From a candidate division WOR-3 bacterium (GTDB lineage Bacteria > Hydrothermota > Tepidihabitantia > B3-TA06), in the NCBI GenBank assembly GCA_016934635.1, contig JAFGSK010000071.1, forward strand, positions 1,294 through 65,293: DNA of 64,000 bases. The letters are read 5' to 3'. Below are positions 448 through 48,888 of the stretch, one piece after another. Position numbers and translations under genes: made by a program. The notes beneath the pieces are model-generated. The model had not been told where the DNA came from and did no database searches. It was given only the letters and a program-made list of their open reading frames with translations. The first letter of the stretch is position 1. Each line of letters opens with the position of its first letter.

Positions 448-550
448 GACTGATGTAAAGTGAGGATTCAGCGAAAAGCGGTTTTCGCTGCATGAAGCGA
501 CGTTTACGTCAAACATGGTGCCTTTGGGAAAGCTTCACACTTAATGGTCA
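1..550 (+). mobile_element. Right-hand end of an ISL3-family insertion sequence (partial, continues upstream of window); boundary approximate
   Basis: Transposase ORF runs off the 5' edge of the window. A hairpin GCGAAAAGCGGTTTTCGC lies at about 467-484. A GGCTCTTGACC-like terminal sequence at about 545-555 is adjacent to the truncated kinase. Confidence 0.5.
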
Positions 551-1214: not shown

Positions 1215-1289
1215 TTGCACAAGAATTCTAGCCGATGTAATACGAATGTCAACGTAACAATACCCCTGCAATGTTACTTTTGAGCCTAC

Positions 1290-1318
1290 TTGACATGCAC
1301 AAAAATCTTGTTTATACT
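1290..1318 (+). promoter_or_regulatory. Sigma70-like promoter, TTGACA-17-TATACT
   Basis: Perfect -35 TTGACA (1290-1295), 17-nt spacer, -10 TATACT (1313-1318). It lies upstream of the TPR gene that heads the signalling operon. Confidence 0.5.
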
Positions 1319-1511
1319 CAGTTTGAATAAGCGACAGATCGGAAAGAGTGGGAGCGGAGATGAGGGCGTGAATAAGATAAATCAATCTATTTAGCCTGGC
1401 CCTCACATTGGAGGAGGTTTGGTTTGTATCAGATAGTGGAGTACAGCGATGATAGGGGGATATAAAGTGTTGATCCGGATTCTGGATATTATATCGTATT
1501 CCCCAAGTTAA

Positions 1512-2870
1512 ATGGTAAGAGCTATGGCTGACGACAATATCAAGGATCTTGAGAAAAGACTGACAGGGCTTGATTTAGAGTCTGGAGAAAACACTACAGC
1601 CTGTGAAAAAGTGAAGGTGCTAAATGAATTGGCTTACGCCCTTTATCGTAGTGATCCCGAGAAGGCTGAAAGCTATTGCGGTCAAGGTCTTAGCTTGGCT
1701 GAGAGTCTCGGATACGAGAAAGGATGTGCGGAGAGTCAACTTATTTTGGGAATTACGTACTGGGTAAGAGGCGATTACAGCAAGGCCCTTGAATTTTATA
1801 CCGAATCTTTAAAAATTTGCGAAAAGATTGATGATAAAAAATGCGCTGCTAGTTGTTACAGTAACATTGGACTAGTTCACAAAAGTAGGGGGGATTATGA
1901 TAGGGCTTTGGAGTTCCATTATAAAGCCCTGAAAGCCAAGGAAGAAATTGATGATAAGTCGGGTATCGCGAAATGTTACAACAATATCGGGATTATTTAC
2001 GACGAGCGAAACGACTACGGTCAGGCTTTGGAATACTATATCAAGGCTTTAAATATCTTTACCGAGATAGATGATAAACAAGGAGTCGCATTTTCTTATA
2101 ACAATATTGGAATTATCTTTGAGACACGGAAGGAGTACGATCAGGCTCTTGCCTATTACCTGAAGTCTTTACGCATCAAGGAGGATATCGGAGATAAAAA
2201 CGGGATCGCAGATTCGTACGCCAACATCGGTGATATATACAGTGAGCGAGGAGATGAAAATCATGCGTTGAAGTATTATTTAAAAGCCCTGACGATATTT
2301 GAAGAGATAGACAACAAAAGGGAGATCGCCGATGTGAATAATAATATCGGATACGTATATACCTTGTTAGGGAAATACGATTCGGCTCTTACTTATCTAC
2401 TAAAGGGTTTACAAATAGCTGAGGAAATAGGAGTGAAACAGTTGGAAATAAGTAGCTGTAAGCACCTTTCTGGGTTATACGAAGCTCAGGCAGATTTCCA
2501 ACAAGCCCTTGCTTTCTTTAGGCGATACAGTGAACTTAAGGAGAAGGTTTTCAGTGAGGAGAGCGCCGAAAAGGTTGCTCAGATACAGGTGAAATATGAG
2601 ACTGAAAAGAATGAGTGGAAGGCTGAGATCTATCGTTTAAGGAACGTGGAACTCGAAGCCGAAATAGCCGAACGTAAAGAGACTGAAGATGCGTTACGCA
2701 GTAGTGTGTGTGATCTTAGCCGCTTTAATCATTTAGCGGTTAAACGGGAGCTGAGAATGATTGAACTTAAACACGAGGTCAACGAATTGCTGCGTTCTAA
2801 GGGCCTTGAGGAAAAATATAAAACCCCTATTCCTGAAGATATCGAAAGTGAAAAAGAGAATAAAAAATGA
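1512..2870 (+). CDS. Tetratricopeptide-repeat protein with C-terminal coiled coil
   Basis: About eight tandem ~40-aa TPR units (e.g. ALEFYTESLKICEKIDDKKCAASCYSNIG / ALEFHYKALKAKEEIDDKSGIAKCYNNIG). C-terminal heptad-rich segment. Stop overlaps the next start (ATGA). Confidence 0.8.
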   Translation: MVRAMADDNIKDLEKRLTGLDLESGENTTACEKVKVLNELAYALYRSDPEKAESYCGQGLSLAESLGYEKGCAESQLILGITYWVRGDYSKALEFYTESLKICEKIDDKKCAASCYSNIGLVHKSRGDYDRALEFHYKALKAKEEIDDKSGIAKCYNNIGIIYDERNDYGQALEYYIKALNIFTEIDDKQGVAFSYNNIGIIFETRKEYDQALAYYLKSLRIKEDIGDKNGIADSYANIGDIYSERGDENHALKYYLKALTIFEEIDNKREIADVNNNIGYVYTLLGKYDSALTYLLKGLQIAEEIGVKQLEISSCKHLSGLYEAQADFQQALAFFRRYSELKEKVFSEESAEKVAQIQVKYETEKNEWKAEIYRLRNVELEAEIAERKETEDALRSSVCDLSRFNHLAVKRELRMIELKHEVNELLRSKGLEEKYKTPIPEDIESEKENKK

Positions 2871-3247
2871 GATGGAACGAAAAAGAAATCTTGATAGGTA
2901 AGAATAAAATGCAAATTATAGAAGGTAACATAGTTCACATTACAGCGATTGGAGATATTGATGAAGAACTTACTAAAGAAATAATGAAACTCTATGAGGA
3001 GTTGATGGAAAGAATGGAGCAAGTAAAGATGCTTTTTGATCTCAATAGAGCGGGTAAGGTTTCACCACAGGCAAGAAAATTATTTACGGAATTGGCTAGG
3101 GATAAAAGGATTCTGAAGGTTGCTTCATTCGGCTTGCATCCTGTGGCAAGGGTAATTGCGACCTTCGGTATGGGTTCAGTGTACGGAAAAGGATTCGCAC
3201 GGTTCTTTAAAACCGAGGAGGAGGCGGTTGCATGGCTGAAAGAGTGA
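2867..3247 (+). CDS. STAS/SpoIIAA-like (DUF3478-type) small protein
   Basis: 126 aa. Pattern I.EGNIVHITAIGDID...LFDL...KVSPQARKLF...KVASFGLHP...FFKTEEEAVAWL is typical of SpoIIAA-like proteins encoded next to sensor kinases. Translationally coupled to the upstream TPR gene. Confidence 0.45.
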   Translation: MRWNEKEILIGKNKMQIIEGNIVHITAIGDIDEELTKEIMKLYEELMERMEQVKMLFDLNRAGKVSPQARKLFTELARDKRILKVASFGLHPVARVIATFGMGSVYGKGFARFFKTEEEAVAWLKE

Positions 3248-3273
3248 TCACAAAGGATTGATAAGATCGAAAG

Positions 3274-4743
3274 ATGGATGAGAAAGAACGTATATCTGAG
3301 ATGATTGATACTATCAGGAAGCTGGCACAGGGGGATTATTCTGCACAGGTTAAGCTTACTGGCAAGAACGATGAACTTGATGCTTTGGGTATGGGTTTGA
3401 ATATGATGATTGACGATATTAGATGCAATACCAAGGAGTTGAATGAAGCTCACCGCGCCTCACTTAATATTATGGAGGATTTAGAAAGGGAGAGGAAGGA
3501 ATTACGCGCTTTAACGCAACAACTTCAAGCCGAAATAACCGAGCGTAAACTGGCCGAAAAAAAAGAGAAAGAGTATATAAAAAATCTCAAGTTTTTATAC
3601 GATGCCGCCCTGGAGTTTGTTGAACTGGTACCTTTCAAGGCGCTATTCAAATACATTGGGGAAAAACTTTACCAGTTAATAGGATCGGTCATGGTAATAA
3701 CAGTTTCCTATGACGAAGATACCGGAAAATTTACAGCGCGGAGTGTTTCAGGGGCGAGTAGTAAAACCGAGGTTGTACTTAAATTCTTTAGCAAAAATCC
3801 GGTAGACCTAGAGTTTACAATACCACCTGTGGCTCAAGCTCAGCTGCATAGGGGTAAATTACAGAAGGTTCCGAACATTCTTGAAAAGGTCACCGATGTC
3901 AAAATTTCTGCGGAAATGGAAGCGGAACTGAAAAAAGATGTCGGTCTTGGAAACGTATATACAATGGGCCTTGCAAGAGGAGAAAGTCTGTTCGGATTTG
4001 TAATTGTGTTCATGCATGAAGGTGTCGAATTGATTAATAAAAGTGTTGTGGAGACATTTATCAATCAAGCGTCAATTGCACTGCAACGCGGCAAGATTGA
4101 GAAAGAACTAACCGCATCTCTTACAGAAAAGGAATTGCTTTTAAAGGAGATTCACCACCGGGTAAAAAATAACCTGCAAGTAATATCTTCCCTATTAAAC
4201 CTTCAAGCAAGATACGTAAATGATGAAGTGATGTTGAAGGTTTTTGCAAACAGTCAGAGCCGGATTGATTCTATGGCCCTTATTCACGAAAGGCTGTATA
4301 AATCCAAAGACCTGGCAAGGGTGAATTTTGAAGGTTACTTAAAGAGCCTTGTCCGTTCGCTATTTGAGTCCCACAATATCAGTTCCAGTAATGTTTCGTT
4401 AAAGTTGGATGTAAGTGGTGTTTCGTTGAGTATTGACAAAGCCATTCCTTTGGGGTTGATTATAAATGAATTGATAAGTAACTCGTTTGAGCACGGATTT
4501 CCTGAAGGCAGGAAAGGTGAGATAAGGATCTATTTAAGGAAGGCGGAAGATCGGGTTATGCTGACCGTTGCCGATAACGGCGTTGGTTTTCCTGAGGATC
4601 ATGATTTGAAATCGACGGATTCGTTCGGATTACGATTGATCAATATGCTGGTAGACCAGTTGAAGGGGAAGATAGAGCTTTGCAAGACCGATGGATCGAA
4701 ATTTAATATATCCTTCTCAGCTAGTAATAAGGATAACGACTAA
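3274..4743 (+). CDS. Cytoplasmic sensor histidine kinase, HisKA_2/HWE-type (HAMP-like segment, coiled coil, sensor module, HisKA_2, HATPase_c)
   Basis: [22 protein letters not shown]-box typical of HisKA_2. HATPase_c with DNGVGFP and GLRLI motifs. No TM segments. Confidence 0.85.
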
Positions 4744-7700
4744 TGTCAACTACTAAGATACTTATCGTTGAAGACGAAAAAATCGTCGCTATTGATCTCA
4801 GGGATCAACTCGAAGCTTTAAGTTATAAGGTTATCGGCATCGTCTCTTCCGGGGAGGAGGCCATAATAAAAGCGAGCCAGATACATCCTGATATTGTTAT
4901 TATGGATATTAAACTGGAGGGTCAGATGGACGGTATCGATGCCGCAGAAAAGATGCGCAACGAACTTGACATTCCAGTAGTATATCTTACTGCATACGCT
5001 GACGAGATTATCTTGGAGCGAGCCAAGGCTACGGAACCGTTCGGTTACATCCTTAAGCCATTTAAGCAGAGGACTCTCCAGGTGGCTATTGAGACCGCTC
5101 TGTACAAGCATAAGACAGAGCAGAGGTTAAAGGCAAGCGAGGAAAGTTTCAGGCAGATAGCTGAGAATATTCGGGAGGTTTTCTGGCTTACTGATTGGAC
5201 TGAAAACAAGGTCCTTTATGTGAGTCCTGCGTACGAGGAGGTTTGGGGACATTCATGCGAGAGTCTTATTGAGAAGCCAGGGAGTTGGGCTGAGGATATC
5301 CATCCTTCCGATCGTGATCGTGTATTTGAAGCTTTCAGAACCCTGGCGCCTATTGGACGCTACGATGAAACCTACCGGATCATCAGGTCAGACGGAAGCG
5401 TGCGCTGGATCCACGACAGGGCGTTTCCCATTCACGATAGGAACGGTAATGTGTGGCGCGTTGCCGGAATATCAGAAGATATTACCAAAGAAAAAGAAGC
5501 GGAGGAAATACTACGAAGGGCGCGTGATGAACTTGAGGCGCGTGTCAAGGATCGTACTGCGGAACTGCGAGAAGAAGTACTGGAACGCAAGCGTGCCGAG
5601 GAGGAGGTGAAGCGGCGGGCCGAGAATCTCGAAGCTGTCAACCAGTTGGTAATTGAATTATCCTCTGCCCCGTCAAATGTGGATTTACTGGAATTGATTA
5701 ACAGGAAGCTAAGGGAGATTACCGGGGCATTGGCTACCGGAATCACCGTCTACGATCCTGAAAGCCAGGAACTTGTCCTGAAACATCTTGCCGCACCTGG
5801 TGAGATTCTCCAGAAAGCGGCGAAGATCATAGATAAAAAGCTCGCTGGTATGCGTTTCCCGGTATCCGGGGATTTCCTTGAACGGATGAAGAGAGAGGTT
5901 GTAGCATCATTTGAGGATCCCTCCGAGCTTTCGCTGGGACAAATACCCAAACCTGTTGCCAGGACCATACAACACACATTCGGGATAGGCGAGGTAACCG
6001 GCTTCGCTCTGCATTACGACGGAAAGGTGGTTGGCGCTGCAGGGATTTTTATGCCTCAGGGAAAGCCGCCTTTGTCAAAAGATCTCCTGCATATCTTTGC
6101 GAACGTGGTTTCGGTTACGCTGCAGCGTAAGCGTGCCGAGGAGGAAGTTAAGCTCAGGGCCGAGTATTCCAATGCCGTAAATGAGTTTGCGATCGAGTTG
6201 GCAGCCGCTTCTTCGGATGTGAACCTTTACGAATTGATTGGCGAGAAGTTAAAGAAGATCACGGCTGCGTTGTCTACCGTTGTTACATCCTATGATAGCC
6301 AAACCGGTGAACTATCCATAAGGTATCTAGGGGTTCCAGAGGACGACCTGCTGCAGATTAATAGGCTTCTCAAGCGTCGGGCAGAAGGGATGCGGTTCCA
6401 GGTTGATGAGAAGATGTTTGAGAAGATGATTACCGAAGTGGTAGCCACGTTCACAGACCTTTCGGAGTTGACCTTCGGTGAGATCCCGAAGCCTGTTGCT
6501 TCCGTTATCCAGAAAACGTTTGGTGTGGGTGAGATAGCGGGATTTGTCTTACATCACAGGGGTGATATTATGGGTTCGGCAGCGATATTTATGCCCAAGG
6601 ATTCCCGTGGGCTGCCTCGCAATGAAATGCACATTATTGCGAATCTCTGTGCGTTAGCCCTGCGGCGAAAACAGGTTGAGGAAAAAGAACACATTCACAT
6701 CCGTAACCTGTCATTCCTGTCAAAGAGTGCAACGGAATTCGTGGCTCTTGTTGAAGATGCGGATGTTTTCGGCTACATCGCAGAACGACTCACCGAACTC
6801 GTGGAAGGCGGAATTGTGGTTTTGGTTTCGTACGATGAACACACTGATAAGTTTAGGGGTGAAAAGGTTCTTGGCTTAGGGGAAAAAACAGAGCAAGTAC
6901 TCAAGATCTTTGGGAAAACCTTAGTCGGAATATCCACTCAAGTAAGCGCTGAGACCAAATCGCGTCTACTCAGCGGTGAGTTGAAGGAATTTCCAGAAAC
7001 CCTTTATGAGATAACAGCAGGTGGGATTCCAGAGGGGGTAAGCAAGGCGCTTGAGAAGGTCATTAGTCCTGGCGCTAAATACTCGATGGGTTTTGTTCAG
7101 CAGGATAGATTGTTAGGTGCGGCTATTGTCGTATTACGCAATGCACTCAAGCTGCGAAACCCGGATACCGTAGAGGCGTTTATTAACCAGGCATCGGTTG
7201 CCTTGCAGCGTAAGAATGCCGAACAAGCGCTGCGTCAATCCGAAGAGCGGTTTCGACGCTTTGCCGGTACCGTCACTGACATGATTTACCGGTACGACAC
7301 CAGACGCTCCGATTACGATTTTATCTCGCCTTCCTGCGAATTGCTGACCGGATACAGTGTTGGAGCCTTCAGGTCTGATCCTGAACACTTCTGGGAAAGT
7401 CTTATCCATCCTGATGATTTTAAAAGGGTGCGAGAGGAAAGAAGACATCAGCTGAGTCAAGAGTCAGGTACATCGTTCAATCTCGATTTCCGCATAATTA
7501 GAAAAGACCGCAGGATGATCTTTGTTAACGAACGTGGGGATTTTGAGGTTGACTTAAATGGACGGATTACGAGCTTTAACGGGGTGGTTCGTGATATAAC
7601 CGAGCAAAAAGTTGCAGAGCAGCAGCTCAAGCGGAGGGCGGAAACAAGCACCGTTCTTGCCGCCCTGACCACTGAACTTTACAGCGCCGAATCCGTTCAG

Positions 7701-10121
7701 GAGGTCCTGGATGTAACAATAAAGCATCTTTCCCAGGTATTCGGCTTCTTTGTCAGTGTTAATTTGATAGACAAGAAAGGAACCAGACCAGTCCTCGCTC
7801 TTAAGGCCTATCATGTTGAATCCAGGATTCTCGGACTAGCTGAAAAATTACTCGGGAGAAGGATACTCGACTGGCCGATTCCACTCTACGAAGACACCGT
7901 AATATCGAGGACAATGCGAACCGGACACCCGACGGTTATTGGTCTGGACTTTGTTCCGGATGAGCCGGTTGTAGAAACCAGTATCAAGAGTATGCTGGAG
8001 TCAATGATTGAAGCTCACAGCCCGTTACTTCCAATAGCCAGGAAAATAGCCGAGCAGGCGGGGGACAAATCGCTGTTGGGGATCCCTTTTTCCAACGCCT
8101 CGGGTGAAATAATCGGTTCTTTAACGGTGGTGGCTGATTTCCGGTTCACCAGGGATGACTACAACCTTGTCAAGGTGACTTCGGATATCATCGGTCGAGC
8201 CATCGGACAGCTGATGCTGACCGAGGAATTGCAGGAATCGGAGGAACGCTACCGGAGCTTGCAGGCCAACGTTCCTGTTGGAATCTTCAGAACGACCCCG
8301 GAGGGGGATTTGCTTTCAGCTAATCCTGCGATGCTCAGGATGCTGGGTTATGCCTCGAAGGAGGAGTTCAAACCGGTACCGTTGGAAGATGTGTATGTTA
8401 ATCCCGAACAACGGGAGGAATTTGCAAAGCTAATGGAACAGGAGGATTCGGTAACAGGTTTTGAGGTTCAGCTTAGGCATAAGGACGGTTCGACTTTCTG
8501 GGCATCAATGAATGCTACTGCTATCAAAGACGAGAAGGGAAAGATACTTTACTTCGATGGAATCCTGGAAGATATTACCGAACGCAAGCAAGCTGAGGAT
8601 TCTCTTATGCGAGAACGCCAGGCTTTTTCCATCATTGCAGAAGCTGCGATTCACGCTAAAGGGATTCAGGATCTTTGTTATCGCGTTTTGTCTGGCCTGG
8701 TCAAGACTTTGGATTTCGATGTGGGCACTGTTCAACTGTACGATCCTGTCGATCGAACACTTACCCTGAAAGCGATGTCAGGGACTTGGGGTGACAAGAT
8801 ATACGATTACGATCCTCCACAGCATATAGACGATCCTGAATACGTGGGTGCAGTCGTAGCAAGGTCTCGTAATCCTATCTTTGCTCCTGACGTGACACAA
8901 CATCAGATCTATGATACCCATAAACAGAGGCTTGAGGAGAATCATATTCGAGCGCTCATTACATGGCCGATTCTAGGATCGAACGATGAACTCTTAGGGA
9001 TTATGCACCTTATGGATGAGAACACGAGGGAGATTCCTGAAAAAGATCGCGTTTTTTTCGAGACAGTAACAGATATGTTTGCCACTGTCCTTGAACGAAA
9101 GCAGGCTGAAGAGGAGTTGAGGATAAAAGACATTGCAATCCAAAGTTCTATTAGTGGTATTGCGCTTATGGATATTGACGGTAAACTTACCTATGTCAAC
9201 GATTCATGTCTTGCGATGTGGGGATATGAGGATACAAAAGAGGTTTTAGGTAAGCCTGGTGGAAAGTATTATAAAAATAAGCGAGATGTGGTTAAGATAA
9301 TGAAGTCTTTAAGGGATGAAGGTAGCTGGATAGGAGAAGCCGAAGGCTTGAGAAAAGACGGGGTAAGCTTTCCCGTCCATCTGGCCATAAGTCTTGTGAA
9401 GAATGAAACCGGTAAGCCTTTGTTTACGATGGCTTCGTTCGTTGATGTTACAGAACGTAGGCAAGCCGAAGATCGGATTAAGGCGGCTCTTAAAGAAAAA
9501 GAGGTTCTTCTCAAAGAGATTCACCACAGGGTGAAGAATAACTTGCAGGTAATCTCATCCCTACTAAATTTACAGGCAGAGCATATTACAGACGAAGAAA
9601 CATTAAAAGTTTTCACGGAGAGTCAGAGTAGGGTTCGCTCAATCGGCCTGATTCACGAAAAGCTGTATCAATCCCCTGATTTGGCTCACATCAATCTTGC
9701 CGAATACATCCGGGGTCTTGGTGATTATTTGTTAAGTATCTATAGGGTTAATACCAGTTTTGTCAGACTCAACATGGAAATGGATGACATATTAATCGAG
9801 TTGGATAAGGCGATCCCGTGTGCATTAATAGTTAACGAGTTCGTCTCCAATGCTCTGAAGTACGCCTTTCCACATACAAGGAAAGGTATGGTTCGTATCA
9901 GGTTGCACAGAGATGAGGATGACGTAGTTATGGTCGTTTCAGATAATGGTGTAGGTATGCCTCCTGATGTAGATTTTCGTAAGACAGAATCGTTGGGGTT
10001 GCAACTGGTTGGGATATTGGTCGATCAACTTGAAGGCAGCGTTGAGCTTGAACGGAAAGAAGGAACGATATTTACGGTAAGATTCCCCTTGGGAAATTCA
10101 GGGAGAAAGGCAGATGTCTAA
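4743..10121 (+). CDS. Giant multi-sensor hybrid histidine kinase: N-terminal REC, multiple PAS and GAF-like modules, C-terminal HisKA_2 + HATPase_c
   Basis: REC with D and K (IVIMDIKL, ILKPF). PAS modules (e.g. 5130-5500, 7240-7610, 8221-8600, 9110-9470). GAF-like modules. C-terminal [21 protein letters not shown] plus DNGVGMP/GLQLV ATPase motifs. Start overlaps the upstream stop (TAATG). Confidence 0.85.
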   Translation: MSTTKILIVEDEKIVAIDLRDQLEALSYKVIGIVSSGEEAIIKASQIHPDIVIMDIKLEGQMDGIDAAEKMRNELDIPVVYLTAYADEIILERAKATEPFGYILKPFKQRTLQVAIETALYKHKTEQRLKASEESFRQIAENIREVFWLTDWTENKVLYVSPAYEEVWGHSCESLIEKPGSWAEDIHPSDRDRVFEAFRTLAPIGRYDETYRIIRSDGSVRWIHDRAFPIHDRNGNVWRVAGISEDITKEKEAEEILRRARDELEARVKDRTAELREEVLERKRAEEEVKRRAENLEAVNQLVIELSSAPSNVDLLELINRKLREITGALATGITVYDPESQELVLKHLAAPGEILQKAAKIIDKKLAGMRFPVSGDFLERMKREVVASFEDPSELSLGQIPKPVARTIQHTFGIGEVTGFALHYDGKVVGAAGIFMPQGKPPLSKDLLHIFANVVSVTLQRKRAEEEVKLRAEYSNAVNEFAIELAAASSDVNLYELIGEKLKKITAALSTVVTSYDSQTGELSIRYLGVPEDDLLQINRLLKRRAEGMRFQVDEKMFEKMITEVVATFTDLSELTFGEIPKPVASVIQKTFGVGEIAGFVLHHRGDIMGSAAIFMPKDSRGLPRNEMHIIANLCALALRRKQVEEKEHIHIRNLSFLSKSATEFVALVEDADVFGYIAERLTELVEGGIVVLVSYDEHTDKFRGEKVLGLGEKTEQVLKIFGKTLVGISTQVSAETKSRLLSGELKEFPETLYEITAGGIPEGVSKALEKVISPGAKYSMGFVQQDRLLGAAIVVLRNALKLRNPDTVEAFINQASVALQRKNAEQALRQSEERFRRFAGTVTDMIYRYDTRRSDYDFISPSCELLTGYSVGAFRSDPEHFWESLIHPDDFKRVREERRHQLSQESGTSFNLDFRIIRKDRRMIFVNERGDFEVDLNGRITSFNGVVRDITEQKVAEQQLKRRAETSTVLAALTTELYSAESVQEVLDVTIKHLSQVFGFFVSVNLIDKKGTRPVLALKAYHVESRILGLAEKLLGRRILDWPIPLYEDTVISRTMRTGHPTVIGLDFVPDEPVVETSIKSMLESMIEAHSPLLPIARKIAEQAGDKSLLGIPFSNASGEIIGSLTVVADFRFTRDDYNLVKVTSDIIGRAIGQLMLTEELQESEERYRSLQANVPVGIFRTTPEGDLLSANPAMLRMLGYASKEEFKPVPLEDVYVNPEQREEFAKLMEQEDSVTGFEVQLRHKDGSTFWASMNATAIKDEKGKILYFDGILEDITERKQAEDSLMRERQAFSIIAEAAIHAKGIQDLCYRVLSGLVKTLDFDVGTVQLYDPVDRTLTLKAMSGTWGDKIYDYDPPQHIDDPEYVGAVVARSRNPIFAPDVTQHQIYDTHKQRLEENHIRALITWPILGSNDELLGIMHLMDENTREIPEKDRVFFETVTDMFATVLERKQAEEELRIKDIAIQSSISGIALMDIDGKLTYVNDSCLAMWGYEDTKEVLGKPGGKYYKNKRDVVKIMKSLRDEGSWIGEAEGLRKDGVSFPVHLAISLVKNETGKPLFTMASFVDVTERRQAEDRIKAALKEKEVLLKEIHHRVKNNLQVISSLLNLQAEHITDEETLKVFTESQSRVRSIGLIHEKLYQSPDLAHINLAEYIRGLGDYLLSIYRVNTSFVRLNMEMDDILIELDKAIPCALIVNEFVSNALKYAFPHTRKGMVRIRLHRDEDDVVMVVSDNGVGMPPDVDFRKTESLGLQLVGILVDQLEGSVELERKEGTIFTVRFPLGNSGRKADV

Positions 10122-13100
10122 AGCCAGCATTCTTGTTGTAGAAGATATCTCGGTGACCGCGCTGGATATAAAAAATCGGTTGTTGGAGTACGGATATTCA
10201 GTATGTGGGGTGGTGACTTCCGGAGAGGAAGCTTTGCTGGAAACTGAAAGATTAAGGCCTGATCTGGTACTTATGGATATTATATTACAAGGTAAAATAG
10301 ACGGGGTCGAGGCAGCAGAGAAGATTAAGGAGGAATTAAATATACCTGTTGTTTATCTCACGGCGCACATGGATAATGCCACCCTGGATAGAGCAAGACT
10401 AACCGAGCCGTTTGGTTATATCGTTAAACCATTTGAGACCAGGGAGATGGTTTCTACTTTGGAACTGGCGCTTTATAGACATAAGATTGAGCGGGCATTA
10501 AAGGAATCTGAGGAGCGTTACCGAAGCCTCCATTCCAACGTCCCGGTAGGCGTATTTCGTTCCACACCTTCGGGGGAGGTTCTTTCAGCTAATCCGGCCA
10601 TGGTAAGGATGATGGGCTATGATTCGGAAGATGAATACAAAACCGTCTCGATTCCTGACTTGTATCTTTATCCGCAGCAACGTGATAGGTTTGTCAAAAG
10701 GTTGAAAGATGATGGTGCGATTACTGAGTTTGAGGTTCAGCTTAGAAGAAAGAACCAGACCGTTTTCTGGGCGTCCCTGACCGCAAAGGCTGTTTCCGAT
10801 AACGAGGGAAAGATAGTACATTACGACGGTATCCTGGAAGACATTTCCGAACGCAAACAACGTGAGTTGCGTGGACAGATCAGGACTCAGCTTCTAGACA
10901 AGCTGCGAGGGGCAGAAACAATCCAGGGGTGTTTGCAGTTAGGTTGCGAGGCGGTACGAGACGCGGGTTTGTTCAAACGTGCGGTATTTACAACAAAGAA
11001 CGAGAAGGGCGAGACAACCAACGCCGGCTATGTTGGTGTGGATCGACAGATCGTTGAGGAGTTGAGGAAAAAACCGCCTGCAACACGTGAGATGTATGCC
11101 CGGATGTTGAAAGAAGATTTCAAGATAAGCCATTCCTACTTTTTACCGGTAGAGGCGGGTTTGGATATCTCCCAGACCGGTAGGTACGTTCTTCAAGACG
11201 TCTCCTCAGGGGAAGGCCCAGATGCATGGCAGCGGGGAGACGAGTTGCTTGTTCCCATGTTTTCCATGAGTGGTTTAGTGGAAAGCTGGCTCTCTGTGGA
11301 TACGCCCGTGGATGGGAAAAGACCTGACGAAGCAACAATTAATTACCTGGAGGATATCGTAGACATCGTCGCTCGTCAGATCAGAGAGATTAAAAACATC
11401 ACTGCGTTGCGAGAATCCGAAGAACGATACCGGAGTTTAACAGAAAGAGCCAGTGCCGGGGTATATATTTTCGGGCCTCAGGACCGATTTATTTTTGCAA
11501 ATCCCGCAATGGAAAAAATTACCGGTTATTCGCGTAAAGAACTGATTCATATGAATCCTTGGGACATAGTAGTTCCAGAAGACAAAGAAGGCGTACTGAA
11601 AGATCGAAGCCAGGCAAGAGTCAAAGGGGAGGAACTTGAGAGTTCTTATCGGATGCGGGTTATACGAAAGAATGGGGAGGAGGCAACACTCGAGATAAAA
11701 GCTACCCCGATTACGTATGAAGGAAAGCCTGCTCAGCTCGGACACTGTATCGATATAACAGAGAGTATCAAGAACGAGAAAAAGATCGAACATCTCAATT
11801 CTGTTCTCAGAGCCATACGGAATGTCAACCAATTGATCAGTCACGAGAGAGTGCCGGAGAAATTACTCGAAGGGATTTGCAGCAAGCTCGTAGAGACTCG
11901 TAGCTTCTACAGCGCTTGGGTCGTTCTTGTGGATGATTCCGGCAAAGTGGCGTTCATTGCCGAAGCGGGACTCAAGGACAAATTTGCGCCGATTTTAAAG
12001 CCGCTCAAACAAGGAAGACTTACGGATTGCGGTCTCAAGGCCCTGGAATGTGATGATATAATAGTAATCGATGATCCGGCAAACCTATGTCGAGATTGCC
12101 ATATTCTATCCGGAGAGATTGAATCGGGCATGATGTATACCAGATTGAAGTATGCAGAAAAGATCTTCGGTGTATTAGCCGTATCCTTATCTTCCGAACT
12201 CAGCCGTGAAACCGAGGAACAGGAGTTGTTCTGTGAAGTAGGAGGAGATATCGCGTTTGCACTGTACAGCATCGAGGCAGATGAGAAACGCAGGCAGGCG
12301 GAAGAGGCGCTGGAAAGGGAACACCGCGCTTTCAAGATAATCGCCGAAGCTTCAGTCCAGGCAAAGGATATTGCTGATTTATGTAAAAGGGTACTTGAAG
12401 GATTAGTAAAAGCTTTAGTTTTTGACGTGGGAACCTTCAGATTGTACGATGCGGATCACAAATTACTCAAGTTGTGGGCTTCTTTTGGCTTGAGTGAAGA
12501 AGAGATAAAGGATGCATCTGGGGCTCAACCGTTGAACGATCCCCGTTACGTTGCAGCTTTAACGGCACGCACTTCAGAACCAATAATCGCTCCTGATATC
12601 TACAGGACAGAAAGACTGCAACCCTTTATATCTAGACTAGAAAAATTCGAAGAGCGCTCCCTTATTTCCTGGCCTATCCTTGACGGACGGCAAGGCTTGC
12701 TCGGTGTATTACAACTCTGGTCCAAGAAAGAAGTAGATATCTCTGAAGGTGATAGGACATTTTTTGAAAGAGTGGCCGGGATGTTTGCCACTGTTTTGGA
12801 ACGCAAACGTACAGAGGAGGAACTTGATCGTCAGCACCAAAAAATAGAAGCATTGTTTGATAATGTCGATGTGCTGCTCTGGTCTATGCGAGAAGGAGAA
12901 GATGGGGAACTCTATTACGAACAGGTCAATTCTGCTTTTGCAGCTGTTGAAGGTTACTCCCCTGATTATTATAATGAGAAGACCATCTCTGAATTACATC
13001 CTCGTGAACAATGCAATGGTATCATGAATACTTATGCCTGGGTTAAGAATGACGGGATGCACGTTAATGATGTTCATTATAAGGGTAGACACTTTGTTAT

Positions 13101-15927
13101 GCGGTTCTTTCCCTTAAAAGATTTTGACGGCAGGATACGTGGATTCATCGGTTCAGGTATCGATATAACCGACCGTAAACGTGCCGAAGAAGGTATTAAA
13201 TCCCGTCTATTCTATGAAGAGAGTGTATCACACTGCTCTCAAATATTGGTAGAGATGGTGGATTTGGGTGAAGCACTTCAGCAGGTGACAGACGAGATGC
13301 TTTCGGTAGGAAAGGCCAGTCGTGCTTTTATATTCAAAAATCTTGACGGTCCGCAGGATGTTATATTCAGTCGTCTGATTAACGAGGCCGTTGCCGATGG
13401 TGTAGAGCCTCAGATTACGGATACCAGGTTTCAACACCTTGTTTTGCAAGAGGCGTCACAGGAGCTTTTCCAGAAACTTTCTTCCGGAAGACCTTATGGA
13501 GGATCTGTTAAGGAATTACCTTCAGAGGATAGAACGGCTCTTTTTTCACCTGAAACCCGTTCTGTTTTAATACTACCGATTCTTATAGAAGATAAATTCT
13601 GGGGATTTATTGGTTTTGAGGATCAGGTGAAAGAACGCAAGTGGACCCAGGAAGATATTCAACTCTTACGTACCCTAGGATCGCTGATTGGCTCTACGAT
13701 AGAAAGAAGGCGAGCAGAGGAGGGGTTACGTGAATCAGAGGAACGCTATCGGGCGTTTACCGAGGAAGCCCTGGTCGGCGTTTATATTTATCGTGAAAGA
13801 CGATTCCTTTTCGTAAACCGGGCCATGGAAGAAATCACCGGGTACTCCCGTGAAGAACTCCTCGCTATGGATACCGGGAAGCTGGTAATTGCCGAAGATC
13901 AAGCTATGTTAACGGCCAGATCCGAGGCGAGGGAAAGAGGCGAGGAGGTTCCTTCACAGTACAGTATGAGAATTGAAAGGAAGAACGGCCAGATAGCCGT
14001 TCTTGAGGTAAGAACCCGCCAGATAGTTTTTGCCGGACAAAAGGCTTATCTGGGCAACTGCGTGGATATTACCGAGATTCGGAGGGTCCAGGAGGCGTTA
14101 GAGAAATCAGAGGAGCGTTATCGGGTACTTACAGAGGAAGCTATGGTCGGTATTTATCTGACCGTGGGCAAGAATTTCGTTTTTCTTAATCCTGCGATGG
14201 AGAAGATAACCGGCTATACTCGTAATGAATTACTCAAGATAGATATGCATTCCATAGTTGTTTCGGAAGATGTAGAGATGATAACCGAAAGAAAAAAACA
14301 GCGAAAACCCGGACAGCCGGATCAATACACAATGCGCATAAAACGAAAGACCGGAGAGATTGCTACGTTGGAAGTCAGGGTTCGTCCTATTCCTTATCAG
14401 GATAAAGCGGCTTTCCTAGGTAACTGTGTTGACATTACCGAGATAATAAATAATAGGAAACAGATAGAACAGGCGAAAAGGGCCTGGGAGAGTACGTTTG
14501 ATTCTATCTCTGATCTCGTGATGATCCTGGATACTGAATATCGCATTATCCGGGCTAATCGTGCCGTAAAGGAGTATACCGGTATCGATTTCAACGATCT
14601 TTTAGGAAGAAATTATCTGGACGTATACAATTTGAACGAAGAAGATAAAGGCATGAAAGAAATACTAGGCAGAAAAGCCAAGCTTCCCGAACACTTCGAG
14701 ATCAAAGACTCGGTACGGGGCAGGATGTTTTCGGTATCGGTTTCTCCGTTGATCGATCCAGTAGGTGAGATAATAGCCACGGTTCACGTAGCGCGTGACA
14801 TCAGCGATATGCGGATGATGGAAGAGGCCTTGGCAGAATCTGAGGCGCAATTCAGGGGTTTGGCGGAGAGTGCAATGGATATTATATTCAGCGTGGAACT
14901 CGACGGAATGATCAGCTACGTCAATCCCAGCGTTGAGGAGATCCTGGGTGTCAATCCGGCGGTATTCATAGGAAGTAACCTCGGGAGTATGAAGGACTCG
15001 AGGCTTTTTACGGCTGAGGTTCGTAAAGTACTTAGCCGAAATCTTTCCTCAAATCTTGAAGAAAAAGATATACCGTTTTTCGAGATAGAGACCGAAGACG
15101 TGAAAGGGCGCAAGCATGTCATAGAGGTGTCTGCACGTAGATTATTTCATCGTATAGTAGGTATCGCACGCGACGTTACAGAACGGAATCTTATGCAACA
15201 GCAGTTGATCAAGGCTTCCAAACTGGCCTCGATCGGAGTCCTCGCTGCTGGGATAGCTCATCAGGTCAATAATCCGCTTGCTATACTTCTCGTACACTCT
15301 ACACTTCTTCGAACTATCTTTACAGATAGGGAGGAAATACCGTTGGAAGTAAAAGAAGAGGTATCAGAATATCTCGATACGATGGAGGAGCAGGTAGAAC
15401 GAACTCGTCGGGTAGTTTCAGGTCTTTTGGAGTTTACTCAACCTGAACGATCCGAACCGAAGCCTACTGACGTTAATCCAATCGTAAATCAAGCTGCAAA
15501 GTGGCTTTCTCAACGTTACTCTCTGGAGGAGTTGACGCTTGAGCTTTTTCTGGATAAAGCCTTGCCCCGAGCATTTCTCGATAAGGTAGCGTTGGAGCAG
15601 GTAATTATGAACGTTATCGAAAATGCATACGATGCCATGGAAGGCTCAGGCAAACTCTCAATCGAGACCATGCTTGTAAATCAGAGTACGGTTAGTATCC
15701 GGATCAGCGATACCGGCCCAGGTGTTCCTTCCGAGATTCGAGATGAGATTTTTGAACCTCTTTATACAACAAAGTCCGGCAAAAAGGGAACAGGATTAGG
15801 CTTGTCTCTTGCCTCAATGCTTTTAGAGCGTTTCGGAGGACGTATTTATCTTGCAGACACCAAAAACGAAGGTGCGAGTTTTGTAATAGAAGTTCCAGTA
15901 TACCAGGATAAGGTTGATGAATCTTAA
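10114..15927 (+). CDS. Giant multi-sensor hybrid histidine kinase: N-terminal REC, multiple PAS/GAF modules, classic HisKA + HATPase_c
   Basis: REC (LVLMDIILQ, IVKPF). At least six PAS-like and three GAF-like modules. H-box IAHQVNNPLAIL (HisKA). HATPase_c with DTGPGVP and GTGLGLSL. Start overlaps the upstream stop by 8 nt (ATGTCTAA). Confidence 0.85.
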   Translation: MSKASILVVEDISVTALDIKNRLLEYGYSVCGVVTSGEEALLETERLRPDLVLMDIILQGKIDGVEAAEKIKEELNIPVVYLTAHMDNATLDRARLTEPFGYIVKPFETREMVSTLELALYRHKIERALKESEERYRSLHSNVPVGVFRSTPSGEVLSANPAMVRMMGYDSEDEYKTVSIPDLYLYPQQRDRFVKRLKDDGAITEFEVQLRRKNQTVFWASLTAKAVSDNEGKIVHYDGILEDISERKQRELRGQIRTQLLDKLRGAETIQGCLQLGCEAVRDAGLFKRAVFTTKNEKGETTNAGYVGVDRQIVEELRKKPPATREMYARMLKEDFKISHSYFLPVEAGLDISQTGRYVLQDVSSGEGPDAWQRGDELLVPMFSMSGLVESWLSVDTPVDGKRPDEATINYLEDIVDIVARQIREIKNITALRESEERYRSLTERASAGVYIFGPQDRFIFANPAMEKITGYSRKELIHMNPWDIVVPEDKEGVLKDRSQARVKGEELESSYRMRVIRKNGEEATLEIKATPITYEGKPAQLGHCIDITESIKNEKKIEHLNSVLRAIRNVNQLISHERVPEKLLEGICSKLVETRSFYSAWVVLVDDSGKVAFIAEAGLKDKFAPILKPLKQGRLTDCGLKALECDDIIVIDDPANLCRDCHILSGEIESGMMYTRLKYAEKIFGVLAVSLSSELSRETEEQELFCEVGGDIAFALYSIEADEKRRQAEEALEREHRAFKIIAEASVQAKDIADLCKRVLEGLVKALVFDVGTFRLYDADHKLLKLWASFGLSEEEIKDASGAQPLNDPRYVAALTARTSEPIIAPDIYRTERLQPFISRLEKFEERSLISWPILDGRQGLLGVLQLWSKKEVDISEGDRTFFERVAGMFATVLERKRTEEELDRQHQKIEALFDNVDVLLWSMREGEDGELYYEQVNSAFAAVEGYSPDYYNEKTISELHPREQCNGIMNTYAWVKNDGMHVNDVHYKGRHFVMRFFPLKDFDGRIRGFIGSGIDITDRKRAEEGIKSRLFYEESVSHCSQILVEMVDLGEALQQVTDEMLSVGKASRAFIFKNLDGPQDVIFSRLINEAVADGVEPQITDTRFQHLVLQEASQELFQKLSSGRPYGGSVKELPSEDRTALFSPETRSVLILPILIEDKFWGFIGFEDQVKERKWTQEDIQLLRTLGSLIGSTIERRRAEEGLRESEERYRAFTEEALVGVYIYRERRFLFVNRAMEEITGYSREELLAMDTGKLVIAEDQAMLTARSEARERGEEVPSQYSMRIERKNGQIAVLEVRTRQIVFAGQKAYLGNCVDITEIRRVQEALEKSEERYRVLTEEAMVGIYLTVGKNFVFLNPAMEKITGYTRNELLKIDMHSIVVSEDVEMITERKKQRKPGQPDQYTMRIKRKTGEIATLEVRVRPIPYQDKAAFLGNCVDITEIINNRKQIEQAKRAWESTFDSISDLVMILDTEYRIIRANRAVKEYTGIDFNDLLGRNYLDVYNLNEEDKGMKEILGRKAKLPEHFEIKDSVRGRMFSVSVSPLIDPVGEIIATVHVARDISDMRMMEEALAESEAQFRGLAESAMDIIFSVELDGMISYVNPSVEEILGVNPAVFIGSNLGSMKDSRLFTAEVRKVLSRNLSSNLEEKDIPFFEIETEDVKGRKHVIEVSARRLFHRIVGIARDVTERNLMQQQLIKASKLASIGVLAAGIAHQVNNPLAILLVHSTLLRTIFTDREEIPLEVKEEVSEYLDTMEEQVERTRRVVSGLLEFTQPERSEPKPTDVNPIVNQAAKWLSQRYSLEELTLELFLDKALPRAFLDKVALEQVIMNVIENAYDAMEGSGKLSIETMLVNQSTVSIRISDTGPGVPSEIRDEIFEPLYTTKSGKKGTGLGLSLASMLLERFGGRIYLADTKNEGASFVIEVPVYQDKVDES

Positions 15928-15988
15928 CCCCGATTTAGATGTGAAAGGTTGGATCTTATGAGAGTTATCCTTCGGGGAATAGAAAGGA

Positions 15989-16729
15989 GTGGAGATGATG
16001 GCTAAGGCACGTATTCTTTTTGTTGATGATGAGCGCACGTTCGCTGACGCTATGTCCCAGTTACTTCGTATTAACGGTTATGAAGTTCAAGCAGCCTATT
16101 CCGGAAAACTTGCCATGGAGATATTCCAACCCGGGGAGTTTGACCTGGTGATTACCGACTTAAGCATGCCTACCATGGATGGAATTGAGTTGGTCCGTCA
16201 GATTAGAAAACTTAATTCCTATCAGAGGATTATTGTTGTTACAGGGTTTCCCTCCCAGCGTTCACAAGAACAGGCTTATAAGTTGGGTACATTGAATTAT
16301 ATAGCCAAGCCCTTTAAGCCTCAGCGGTTTCTTGAATTGGTTAACGATGCCCTGCGAGGTCAGGAGGAGGGTTTGCTTGGCGCTATAAAGCTTTCTCCTT
16401 CAGATCTTGTGCAGCTTTACAGCTATATGGGAAAGACAATTGTACTTGAAATACTTAAAGGCAAGAACGGAGAGGCGGGTCGAATATACTTCAGTAAAGG
16501 CCAGGTAGTTCACGCAGAAACCGAGCAACTTAAAGGCAAGGAAGCGTTTTACGAGATTCAAACGTGGTTTTCAGGTATATTTAAGACAGAGAAACCGCAG
16601 CCAGAATTTCCTCATACGATTGATGAGGATGTGGACGTGTTGCTTCTGGAAGCGGCACGCAGGCAGGATGAACAACCTTGGCCTGTTGTTAAAAGAGAGG
16701 AGTGTGAAGATAATGAAGACTCCGGTTGA
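15989..16729 (+). CDS. Response regulator: REC domain fused to DUF4388 (PATAN-like) domain
   Basis: REC motifs (ILFVDDE, LVITDLSMP, YIAKPF). C-terminal LSPSDLVQLYSYMGKTIVLEIL...GRIYFSKGQVVHAE...GKEAFYEIQTWFSGIF matches the DUF4388 consensus. Confidence 0.7.
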   Translation: MEMMAKARILFVDDERTFADAMSQLLRINGYEVQAAYSGKLAMEIFQPGEFDLVITDLSMPTMDGIELVRQIRKLNSYQRIIVVTGFPSQRSQEQAYKLGTLNYIAKPFKPQRFLELVNDALRGQEEGLLGAIKLSPSDLVQLYSYMGKTIVLEILKGKNGEAGRIYFSKGQVVHAETEQLKGKEAFYEIQTWFSGIFKTEKPQPEFPHTIDEDVDVLLLEAARRQDEQPWPVVKREECEDNEDSG

Positions 16730-16761
16730 TTGTAACTCCGGAGCTTGAAAGGTAATCTATT

Positions 16762-17664
16762 ATGAATGAGCGGGCAAGGATCCTTTTTGTAGACGATGAG
16801 CGTAAATTTGCCGATGCAATGGCAAAGGTGCTACGATACGGGGATTTTAACGTACAGACTGCGTATTCGGGAAGCCAGGCTCTTGATTTTTATCAAAGCG
16901 AAAGCTTTGACCTGGTTATCACTGATCTCAAGATGCCGGTAATGGACGGTATTGAATTGATTCGTCGAATAAAACAGATCAATCAAGATCAGTTAATACT
17001 GGTTATCACCGCATTTCCCACCCAGTGTATGCCATGGAACAGAAGGTTCTCAGAATCAGGCGCGCCAGAGCTGGATCTGGAAACGGTCAACTATCTGGTT
17101 AAGCCTTTTACACCCAAGCGTTTGATAGAGGTTGTTGAGAAAACCTTTCGTGAAAAAGATGTGGCTTTGGGCCGGAAGGTTTCAGTTGCCGAATCTGCAG
17201 ACGAAACACTCACTTCGGAAGAAGAGATGTTTTCCCATGAACCTGTAGCAGGGAAAACCAGCCAGAAAGTGGTGAAACCGACATCCGGAAACTTTATATC
17301 CAATGCTGCATTAGAGATTCTTGAAGAGTCCTCCGGGGCCGTGGGTGCACCGGCTGTATGTGCCCTGGTTGGTTTTGACGGGGTAACCATAGCTGAGGTG
17401 AATACCAGCGGTATGGGTAAGGATGCCTATTCAGGAAAGTTCGCAGACGCCATGAAGCTCTTACGGAAAACACTTGCCGAGGTTGGAAGCGGACATCTGA
17501 ACGAGGGGACACTCAAACTGGATAAACACTGGATTCTCGTCCGGTTCCTGGATCGAGCGAATTGTTACCTTTGTATAGTTGCTCTGCTCGGTGTTCCGAT
17601 CGGAACCCTGAGAACGGTTGCCAAAAAGACGGTTGAAGGGCTGAGCTCGGTCCTGGAGATGTAA
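16762..17664 (+). CDS. Response regulator: REC domain fused to Roadblock/LC7 (MglB-like) domain
   Basis: REC is a paralog of the preceding gene (ARILFVDDERKFADAMAKVL). C-terminal ALEILEESSGAVGAPAVCALVGFDGVTIAEV...CYLCIVALLGVPIGTLRTVAKKTVEGL fits the Roadblock/LC7 fold pattern. Confidence 0.6.
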   Translation: MNERARILFVDDERKFADAMAKVLRYGDFNVQTAYSGSQALDFYQSESFDLVITDLKMPVMDGIELIRRIKQINQDQLILVITAFPTQCMPWNRRFSESGAPELDLETVNYLVKPFTPKRLIEVVEKTFREKDVALGRKVSVAESADETLTSEEEMFSHEPVAGKTSQKVVKPTSGNFISNAALEILEESSGAVGAPAVCALVGFDGVTIAEVNTSGMGKDAYSGKFADAMKLLRKTLAEVGSGHLNEGTLKLDKHWILVRFLDRANCYLCIVALLGVPIGTLRTVAKKTVEGLSSVLEM

Positions 17665-17711
17665 GCGGGTGTAGGCGACGCAGTTGCCTTCAAAGAACAC
17701 AGAGCTTCATA

Positions 17712-17745
17712 TCAAATCTCAAATATCAAATCTGATAATTCAAAT
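17712..17745. repeat. Four TCAAAT hexamers (aTCAAATcTCAAATaTCAAATctgataatTCAAATtg)
   Basis: Direct reading of the intergenic sequence. Confidence 0.6.
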
Positions 17746-17816: not shown

Positions 17817-17855
17817 GAAACACAGAGGGCACAGAGAACACAGAGATAACAGGGG
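17817..17855. repeat. Tandem 9-nt periodic repeat: CACAGAG x3, plus a degenerate 4th unit
   Basis: CACAGAG at 17821, 17830 and 17839, with an exact 9-nt period, followed by taacagggg. Confidence 0.7.
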
Positions 17856-17938: not shown

Positions 17939-17966
17939 CCACAAAGAACACAAAGCACACAAAGAT
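17939..17966. repeat. Tandem 9-nt periodic repeat: CACAAAG x3
   Basis: CACAAAG at 17940, 17949 and 17958, the same 9-nt period as the upstream CACAGAG array. Confidence 0.7.
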
Positions 17967-46894: not shown

Positions 46895-46954
46895 TTGAAA
46901 ATTAGAGGACGAGAATGATTCGTATGGAATCACTCGTCAATAAGAGTTGATGCT

Positions 46955-46977
46955 CGGGCCGCTCGAAGGGCGGCCCG
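46955..46977 (+). terminator. GC-rich hairpin (CGGGCCGC-loop-GCGGCCCG) after paralog 1; weak U-tract
   Basis: 8-bp perfect stem with a 7-nt loop, followed by UAUCGUUUAA. Confidence 0.4.
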
Positions 46978-47097
46978 TATCGTTTAAGAGGAAAAAAAAA
47001 GGTAATTGTAATTACCGTGATAAACGAACAGAATCCTTAAGGTTTATTGAGGATTCGATGGTTCAACGGAAAAGAAGACTAATCCTGGAGGTCTTTA

Positions 47098-48864: not shown

Positions 48865-48888
48865 AAAACGACAACTCACAAATAATTA

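Follow-up and report, generated by a model that had tools for sequence, protein, structure and literature searches.

Roadblock and PATAN domains are recurrent and poorly understood outputs of bacterial signalling, and they are best known from polarity in Myxococcus and from phototaxis in cyanobacteria. In Myxococcus xanthus, the Roadblock protein MglC bridges the response regulator RomR and MglB, and MglA is the protein on which, or around which, both MglB and MglC act (PMC10329633). PATAN is the output domain of the cyanobacterial PatA-type regulators and binds PilB1; in Synechocystis, this domain on its own is sufficient to bind PilB1 and to reverse phototaxis, and fusions of PATAN to GspE_N domains have been noted (10.1101/2021.06.11.447907). 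PATAN genes are located near some groups of mglA genes (PMC4316618), and passages in PMC4316618, which cites Makarova 2006, and in 10.1101/2021.06.11.447907 place homologues of MglB near PATAN genes. In this study, a locus was analysed in which both output domains are encoded side by side, namely seven consecutive genes (g1 to g7) in a 64-kb stretch (referred to as the window) of the 112-kb contig JAFGSK010000071.1, annotated as coming from a candidate division WOR-3 bacterium.

These genes constitute a real signalling operon of a known kind, in a variant that is uncommon. Three soluble sensor kinases (g3, g4 and g5) probably feed two paired regulators (g6 and g7), which would bind proteins and not DNA. 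The functional core is formed by g5, g6 and g7, because this triad recurs in all seven related contigs. These contigs, which carry seven homologues of g7 (38-50% identity), show without exception (7/7) a giant kinase with PAS and GAF domains, then a gene for a receiver (REC) domain with PatA_N, and the g7 homologue as the last gene. Where complete, the giant kinases comprise 1,744 to 3,753 amino acids (aa), and their kinase core is in 7/7 cases of the g5 type (54-61% identical to the HisKA core of g5) and never of the HisKA_2 type. Three of the loci (L001, L004 and L095) possess the triad without g1 to g3.

The window was scanned for possible targets and neighbouring genes with Pfam up to 55.6 kb and by tblastn over all 64 kb with an MglA sequence; the last 8 kb are covered by the MglA probe only. 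No DNA-binding regulator was detected, either within the operon or elsewhere in the parts of the window that were examined, and the MglA search yielded nothing below an E-value of 0.5. The earlier statement that the operon encodes neither a DNA-binding regulator nor a GTPase is thereby upheld. In two of the related loci, L001 and L096, a sigma-54 regulator of the NtrC type is encoded within the module, and the absence of a transcriptional output is therefore specific to this lineage. The same two loci contain an open reading frame (ORF) of 107-108 aa without Pfam match between the REC-PATAN and REC-Roadblock genes (L001, 9562-9885; L096, 9497-9823), which is absent from the window.

Further searches added little to this set of loci. 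A search of genome contigs with the full-length alignment of g7 gave almost solely receiver-only matches, and a local hidden Markov model (HMM) scan of 80 such loci revealed no further g7-type domain; what it did detect was a canonical Roadblock gene that stands alone, in L005, and, in L053, an unrelated homologue of MglA. In L005, which stems from an uncultured bacterium, the canonical Robl_LC7 gene (1.3e-18; 3505-3933) lies on the opposite strand and 6 kb from a gene for a REC-DUF4388 protein of 373 aa (9899-11020), which has an extra C-terminal part of about 140 aa and is followed by four small ORFs. A scan of metagenomes with g7 gave short contigs only and no new synteny.

The last gene of the operon, g7, has 13 full-length homologues (36-62% identity) besides the window's own entry P0001, and one of them was named by JGI as a CheY-like protein plus Roadblock/LC7/MglB. 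A profile of the whole protein matched only receiver domains in the PDB, and therefore the C-terminus was searched separately. Neither residues 177-300 nor residues 126-300 matched any Pfam family, including Robl_LC7 (PF03259), at E ≤ 10. In the PDB, however, the C-terminal profile, built from 13 homologues, matched MglC of M. xanthus (7ct3) with an E-value of 1.6e-5 over 107 of 123 positions, and an Asgard Roadblock protein (7yh1) was the weak third match.

The AlphaFold 2 (AF2) model of this domain is in line with the profile match. It was obtained with a predicted local distance difference test score (pLDDT) of 94.9 and a predicted template modelling score (pTM) of 0.88, and its elements follow the order H-E-E-H-E-E-E-H, as in the Roadblock fold. 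In a Foldseek search of the PDB, the top 50 matches were all Roadblock, LC7 or LAMTOR proteins; the best were MglB of Thermus and of Myxococcus (E about 2e-7, template modelling (TM) score 0.82-0.88), and Asgard Roadblock proteins and LAMTOR/p14-MP1 were also found. As judged from profile and model, the C-terminus of g7 has a Roadblock fold of the MglB/MglC type. This assignment rests on the profile search against the PDB and on the structure, because Pfam gave no match. The original prediction of a REC-Roadblock protein thus stands with respect to the fold, and the expected recovery of Robl_LC7 by Pfam failed. Pfam searches had been proposed as the check on both output domains; they recovered DUF4388 and not Roadblock, and a decision based on the failed search would have wrongly rejected a correct assignment.

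The receiver of g7 contains an insertion at the usual site of helix alpha-4 (residues about 88-110; 17023-17091). Its residues P91-W92-N93-R94-R95 are invariant in 14/14 homologues and are modelled with a pLDDT of about 52-58; g6 lacks this insertion.

The neighbouring gene, g6, encodes a REC-PATAN protein, whose PATAN domain (PF14332; residues 135-229, about 16391-16675) scored 58.7 bits against a cut-off of 25. The true start of g6 is probably the ATG at 15998, because the NCBI product (P0015) has 243 aa, beginning with MAKARILF, and a GGAG motif lies 10 nt upstream. The receivers of g6 and g7 are paralogues (49% identical amino acids). Both genes encode single-REC proteins with outputs other than DNA binding, REC-DUF4388 and REC-Roadblock, as had been expected.

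That both outputs work together is suggested by gene fusions. An exhaustive HMM search with the Roadblock profile of g7 against 1.84 billion representative proteins yielded 163 clusters at E ≤ 1e-3, six of them at E ≤ 1e-30. Among the 73 matches of at least 180 aa, DUF4388/PATAN was present in 58, REC in 27 and Robl_LC7 (PF03259) in 34. Three fusion proteins (P0133, P0135 and P0140) are colinear with REC and PATAN of g6 followed by the Roadblock domain of g7, which is 34% identical to theirs. Another REC-PATAN-Roadblock fusion, P0023, is 52% identical to g6 over REC and PATAN and ends with a canonical Robl_LC7 domain. Because 58 of the 73 multidomain relatives carry PATAN, g6 and g7 look like a split REC-PATAN-Roadblock unit. 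The simplest reading of these sequences is that g6-g7 is a two-gene version of this unit with a duplicated receiver, and the fusions make it likely that PATAN and Roadblock act jointly.

Table 1. Features of the seven-gene operon and its surroundings in the 64-kb window. Coordinates of genes are those of the ORF list.
Feature	Position	Strand	Evidence or remark
Best sigma-70-like promoter match (candidate)	1290-1318	+	TTGACA-17-TATACT, 11/12; ~190 nt 5' of g1
g1, TPR protein of 452 aa, C-terminus coiled-coil-like	1512-2870	+	Pfam TPR_12 5e-52
g2, STAS/SpoIIAA-like protein of 126 aa	2867-3247	+	PF11964 4.9e-9; DUF7793 3.5e-7
g3, soluble histidine kinase	3274-4743	+	HisKA_2 9.2e-31; HATPase_c 3.2e-11; HAMP 1.5e-5
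g3, copy of ~175-aa module (residues 100-287)	3571-4134	+	39% identical to third copy of g4, E 7e-37
g4, REC-first kinase of 1,792 aa	4743-10121	+	Pfam and self-trained HMM
g4, three tandem ~175-aa modules	5595-6128, 6150-6692, 6705-7238	+	within a gap of 580 aa
g4, HisKA_2-HATPase_c core	9516-10094	+	51% identical to g3 core; absent from seven of seven related giant kinases
g5, REC-first kinase of 1,937 aa	10114-15927	+	Pfam and self-trained HMM
g5, N-terminal REC	10129-10461	+	52% identical to g4 REC; acidic pair, phospho-acceptor Asp, Thr and Lys kept
g6, REC-PATAN (DUF4388) response regulator	15989-16729	+	Response_reg 4.7e-28; DUF4388 7.6e-16
g7, response regulator with REC, disordered linker and Roadblock domain	16762-17664	+	Response_reg 7.4e-22; AF2 model of whole protein
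g7, MglC/MglB-like Roadblock domain (residues 177-300)	17290-17661	+	profile match, AF2 and Foldseek

The target of this pair is most probably a protein, and two kinds of partner were considered. According to the original prediction, two regulators of an MglA-like GTPase terminate a branched phosphorelay with multiple inputs, Roadblock is the GTPase-activating protein (GAP) or adaptor, and the system controls polarity or motility. The MglB/MglC fold of g7 agrees with this, as does the link of PATAN and Roadblock to MglA-type systems, which does exist in the literature (PMC4316618): the reported proximity of PATAN genes to some mglA groups and, in the passages mentioned above, of MglB homologues to PATAN genes, and the way in which MglC connects RomR, a receiver protein, with the GAP MglB in M. 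xanthus (PMC10329633). However, neither the tblastn search nor the Pfam scan of the neighbouring genes revealed an MglA-like gene in the window, the seven related contigs encode no small GTPase up to a distance of about 10 kb from the module, and the closest solved relative in sequence, MglC, is according to the literature not itself a GAP. A GTPase as the partner of g7 is an assumption, and this model as a whole is regarded as doubtful.

Secondly, the output might act on the motor ATPase of a type IV pilus or secretion system, where the PATAN domain of g6 would bind PilB or PilC depending on the phosphorylation state of the receiver, in the manner of the cyanobacterial PixE/PatA-type regulators, and g7 would modulate or localise this interaction. 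The binding of PilB1 by PATAN alone in Synechocystis and the PATAN-GspE_N fusions argue for such a function. However, no gene of the PilB, PilC, PilT or GspE type was found, either where the window was scanned with Pfam or in the flanking regions of the related loci, and the order REC-PATAN in g6 is the reverse of that in PatA. This makes a pilus or secretion motor an unlikely target.

The two giant kinases upstream of the regulators are built from long arrays of sensor domains. g4 starts with REC (residues 6-116) and PAS (134-249), followed by three unrecognised modules (285-832), PAS (835-954), GAF (985-1154), PAS (1168-1280), GAF (1307-1452), PAS (1460-1571), HisKA_2 (1592-1667) and HATPase_c (about 1689-1784). 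In g5, REC (6-116) and PAS (134-246) precede a stretch of 190 aa without domain match (247-436), PAS (437-550), GAF (581-717 and 752-897), PAS (909-1020), GAF (1036-1198), four PAS domains (1210-1690), HisKA (1710-1778) and HATPase_c (1823-1930). HATPase_c is present in g3, g4 and g5; the H-box reads HHRVKNNL in g3 and in g4, and AHQVNNPL in g5. All four receivers of the operon (g4, g5, g6 and g7; Pfam Response_reg 3.4e-18 to 4.7e-28) are intact, with the acidic pair, the phospho-acceptor Asp, the Thr and the Lys conserved in an alignment with the sequence of E. coli CheY. No Hpt domain was detected by Pfam in the proteins of the operon.

Eleven PAS domains (four in g4, seven in g5) were located with a self-trained HMM, and each was confirmed above the Pfam curated cut-offs. 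Of the five GAF domains (two in g4, three in g5), the one at residues 581-717 of g5 scores 28.1 bits against a cut-off of 28.6. Together with four ~175-aa modules and the 190-aa stretch, about 21 sensor modules were counted. This total comes near to the approximately 22 modules expected previously, and the proposed division into 14 PAS and 8 GAF modules is incorrect.

In the tandem array of g4, the first two ~175-aa modules share 46% identical amino acids, and the third matches both at E about 1e-9. Further copies are present in the giant kinases of L095, L096 and L097, and a large protein search yielded one additional homologue, P0274. For this module, Pfam gave no match at E ≤ 1, a search of the PDB gave no sequence match, and a similarity to GAF profiles was not found either (hhalign probability 0.7% against five local GAF domains). 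From its sequence and its position, this module may be a sensor domain which has not been described before.

The N-terminal position of the receivers in both giant kinases was confirmed by Pfam. As a defining trait of this kinase family, the REC-first arrangement was rejected, for three complete orthologues of g5 (L001, L004 and L095) lack an N-terminal REC domain.

The relation between g4 and g5 becomes clearer from one relative. A contig of 16.45 kb (L097 and L098 are the same contig) carries both a homologue of g2 (P0122) and a homologue of g7 (P0008), in the order unrelated gene of 444 aa, STAS, HAMP/PAS-HisKA_2 kinase, REC-first kinase of 3,097 aa, REC-PATAN and REC-Roadblock. The N-terminus of this single giant kinase matches residues 30-470 of g4 (57%; REC, PAS and ~175-aa module), and its last 1,505 residues match residues 432-1937 of g5 (52%); an internal HisKA_2 core and a second REC are both missing. 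The sequences suggest that g4 and g5 together are the counterpart of one kinase, which in the window is broken up by duplicate copies of a kinase core and a receiver, with an 8-nt overlap joining the two genes. Because the single kinase lacks the core of g4 and the receiver of g5, a signal from the g4 core to the g5 receiver is suggested. Furthermore, the REC-less orthologues in L001, L004 and L095 have no co-directional HisKA_2 kinase gene immediately upstream, which fits an action of a g3-type kinase on the N-terminal receiver.

From these comparisons, the following scheme is proposed. The STAS-like protein g2 would be the partner of the HAMP/HisKA_2 kinase g3 and modulate it, and g3 would phosphorylate the N-terminal receiver of g4. 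The HisKA_2 core of g4, a paralogue of the g3 core, would in turn phosphorylate the receiver at the N-terminus of g5, which is paralogous to that of g4. One ancestral giant kinase was apparently cut in this lineage into two proteins linked by transfer from kinase to receiver, and about 21 sensor modules would gate the final kinase at successive levels. This final kinase, g5, with its HisKA core, most likely phosphorylates both paralogous regulators, and the PATAN and Roadblock outputs of g6 and g7 would then act jointly as one protein-binding unit, a partnership suggested by the fusions. This unit would bind a protein and not a promoter; the candidates are a motor component of type IV pili and, encoded elsewhere, an MglA-like GTPase or NTPase.

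The original prediction saw a branched relay. Conservation and paralogy suggest a cascade in layers instead, with a single conserved pair of outputs and without two giant kinases acting in parallel; g4 and g5 correspond to one kinase of L097. If the kinases did act in parallel, the N-terminal receivers of g4 and g5 would be self-regulatory or serve as phosphate sinks, and g3, g4 and g5 would each phosphorylate g6, g7 or both. REC-first hybrid kinases with autoregulatory receivers are indeed common, and the REC-first orthologues in L096 and L097 are single proteins, in which the receiver could act intramolecularly. However, HisKA_2 cores are restricted to loci with an N-terminal REC of the g4/g5 type, and the regulator pair is always accompanied by a HisKA core of the g5 type. 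Furthermore, the receivers of g4/g5 and of g6/g7 are two distinct pairs of paralogues (24-30% identity between the pairs), and one polypeptide of L097 connects g4-like and g5-like sensor arrays covalently in series. A parallel arrangement is thus held to be improbable.

The preferred interpretation is that of a layered two-component operon, cytoplasmic in all its parts, with g5, g6 and g7 as the core, g2 to g4 as an upstream tier and a protein as target, and it is favoured with modest confidence. Several points weigh against it. Each arrow of phosphotransfer is deduced from synteny, fusion and paralogy, and the N-terminal receivers of hybrid kinases can also be intramolecular sinks or autoregulators. 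The covariation of the N-terminal REC with an upstream HisKA_2 kinase is based on only five informative loci, the window included. In its middle part, the kinase of L097 matches the PAS/GAF arrays of g4 and g5 alike, so that a clear correspondence is limited to the ends, and either fission here or fusion there may account for the change. In addition, the missing genes for small GTPases and for pilus or GspE-type ATPases, in the window as in the surroundings of the related modules, leave the protein target without a linked candidate, and g1 is not conserved, since no counterpart was found in L098, the one relative which keeps the remaining genes of the operon.

With respect to the gene arrangement, the earlier description held true. 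The ORF list contains the seven same-strand genes at the positions given before (Table 1), and the overlaps ATGA at 2867 (g1/g2, 4 nt), TAATG at 4743 (g3/g4, 1 nt) and ATGTCTAA at 10114 (g4/g5, 8 nt) as well as the short gaps after g2 (26 nt), g5 (61 nt, or 70 nt if g6 begins at the ATG at 15998) and g6 (32 nt) were found. A consensus scan detected no terminator-like site in any intergenic gap. With one strand, overlapping or abutting stop and start codons and zero terminator-like sites between the genes, g1 to g7 are, on the level of sequence, a single translationally coupled operon, for which co-transcription is predicted. The total number of promoter-like sites was no higher than in shuffled sequence, and the promoter at 1290-1318 is therefore a candidate only. 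Rfam gave zero family matches for positions 1-24000. None of the seven proteins has a hydrophobic segment of the membrane type, from which a cytoplasmic location of the whole system follows.

Pfam also supported the genes previously described as TPR, STAS-like, histidine kinase and REC-DUF4388. The domain order of g3 is HAMP, coiled coil, an unrecognised module of ~175 aa, HisKA_2 and HATPase_c, and its orthologue in L098 is 55% identical. The orthologue of g2 in L098 (P0122, 69% identical) lies directly 5' of the g3 orthologue, which is joined to the giant kinase gene by a TGATG stop/start overlap, so that the overlap of the g3/g4 type is conserved. A homologue of g2 with 51% identity also directly precedes a HAMP kinase gene in an unrelated locus (L099); the conserved neighbour of g2 is thus a gene for a HAMP histidine kinase. 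A DSSG-like motif was not seen in g2 by eye, and no gene for an RsbW-type kinase or a PP2C phosphatase was found in the operon. No Pfam match was obtained for the C-terminal 123 aa of g1.

Upstream of g1, where ORFs are located at 46-447 (+), 541-957 (-) and 1086-1406 (-), a fragment of an ISL3-type transposase, which covers profile positions 58-176 of 240, and an incomplete Ser/Thr protein kinase domain (99-198 of 263) were detected, and these fragments suggest that this border is rearranged and pseudogenised. Because of them and of the missing counterpart in L098, g1 is the weakest member of the operon. That the seven genes are not one functional unit, with g1 and possibly g2-g3 as chance neighbours and only g4/g5 to g7 as a system, would agree with the lack of a g1 homologue in the syntenic relative, with the gene fragments just 5' of g1 and with the triads without g1-g3 in L001, L004 and L095, but it is very unlikely in view of the ATGA overlap coupling g1 to g2, the order g2-g3 and the stop/start overlap into the giant kinase conserved in L098, and the gaps free of terminator-like sites.

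Downstream of g7, a gap of 485 nt contains three clusters of (A/G)ACACA(G/A)AG repeats with a period of 9 nt (17691-17705, 17819-17852 and 17942-17965) and a tandem pair of ATATCAAATCT at 17709-17736; these repeats have no Rfam match. Further downstream, a C25 (gingipain-type) peptidase of 1,280 aa with a C-terminal FlgD_ig domain is encoded at 23849-27691. In related loci, the module is likewise flanked by genes for proteins with a Por_Secre_tail or FlgD_ig tail, and a secretion background of the FCB type therefore fits. At 45191-50785, three consecutive ORFs on the plus strand (567, 588 and 587 aa) without Pfam match at E ≤ 1e-5 follow a gene for an LVIVD-repeat protein of 701 aa. The end of the window (55586-63691) contains seven ORFs on the minus strand, for which the tblastn search with MglA is the only scan.

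Except for the ~175-aa module, all component families (REC, PATAN, Roadblock, HisKA, HisKA_2, PAS, GAF, STAS and TPR) are known. The triad of giant kinase, REC-PATAN and REC-Roadblock, the MglC-like Roadblock family whose members are mostly fused to PATAN, the split of the kinase and the ~175-aa module appear to be undescribed in the searched literature, in which no paper naming both 'DUF4388' and 'Roadblock' was found. Very tentatively, REC-PATAN and REC-Roadblock might form a heteromeric phospho-switch of a cellular machine (polarity, pilus or another NTPase) in bacteria of the WOR-3/FCB type without a linked MglA-type GTPase, g4 and g5 might represent a giant kinase breaking into a two-step cascade through an inserted duplicated core and receiver, and the ~175-aa repeat might be a new sensor family; this combined reading is considered possible rather than probable. 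In any case, the triad is a compact and testable system with regard to what the PATAN-Roadblock unit binds and how phosphorylation controls this binding, and g4/g5 in comparison to the single-protein relative offer a natural experiment on the division of very large multi-sensor kinases into kinase-to-kinase cascades.

Several described systems share parts of this organisation. In the conservons of Streptomyces (CvnA kinase, CvnB Roadblock protein, CvnC and CvnD GTPase), a histidine kinase is likewise encoded together with a protein of the Roadblock family (PMC4316618). However, the conservon kinase is membrane-bound, its Roadblock protein stands alone, and it has an MglA-like GTPase of its own and neither receivers nor PATAN, whereas the window lacks a GTPase. 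Multi-kinase phosphorelays with REC-first hybrids resemble the operon in that several kinases and stand-alone receivers are encoded in one operon and that the kinases carry N-terminal receivers. They differ from the present system, in which no Hpt domain was detected and the proposed series runs from a kinase core to the N-terminal receiver of the next kinase.

The cyanobacterial PatA-type regulators (PatA, PixE, PixG and PilG-like proteins) share with g6 a bona fide PATAN/DUF4388 domain beside a receiver, and PATAN serves as a protein-binding output. In g6, however, the domain order is reversed to REC-PATAN, the partner is a soluble giant PAS/GAF kinase instead of a chemotaxis-like CheA system, and an obligate REC-Roadblock gene is the neighbour.

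Among the systems with Roadblock proteins, MglB, MglC and RomR of M. xanthus are the closest in fold, with MglC as the nearest relative of g7 in sequence and MglB in structure, and in the RomR/MglC/MglB complex a receiver and Roadblock are also functionally joined. In g7, however, both are combined in one polypeptide, beside a REC-PATAN gene and a dedicated giant kinase. Further differences are the lack of MglA, MglB, RomX and RomY genes near g7, the missing Pfam Robl_LC7 match of its domain, and the host, a member of WOR-3 and not of the Myxococcota.

Finally, the REC-PATAN-Roadblock and PATAN-Roadblock fusions (P0023, P0133, P0135 and P0140) are colinear with g6 and the Roadblock domain of g7. 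In the window, by contrast, this unit is distributed over two genes, each with a receiver of its own, and the two halves would therefore be separately controllable by phosphorylation.

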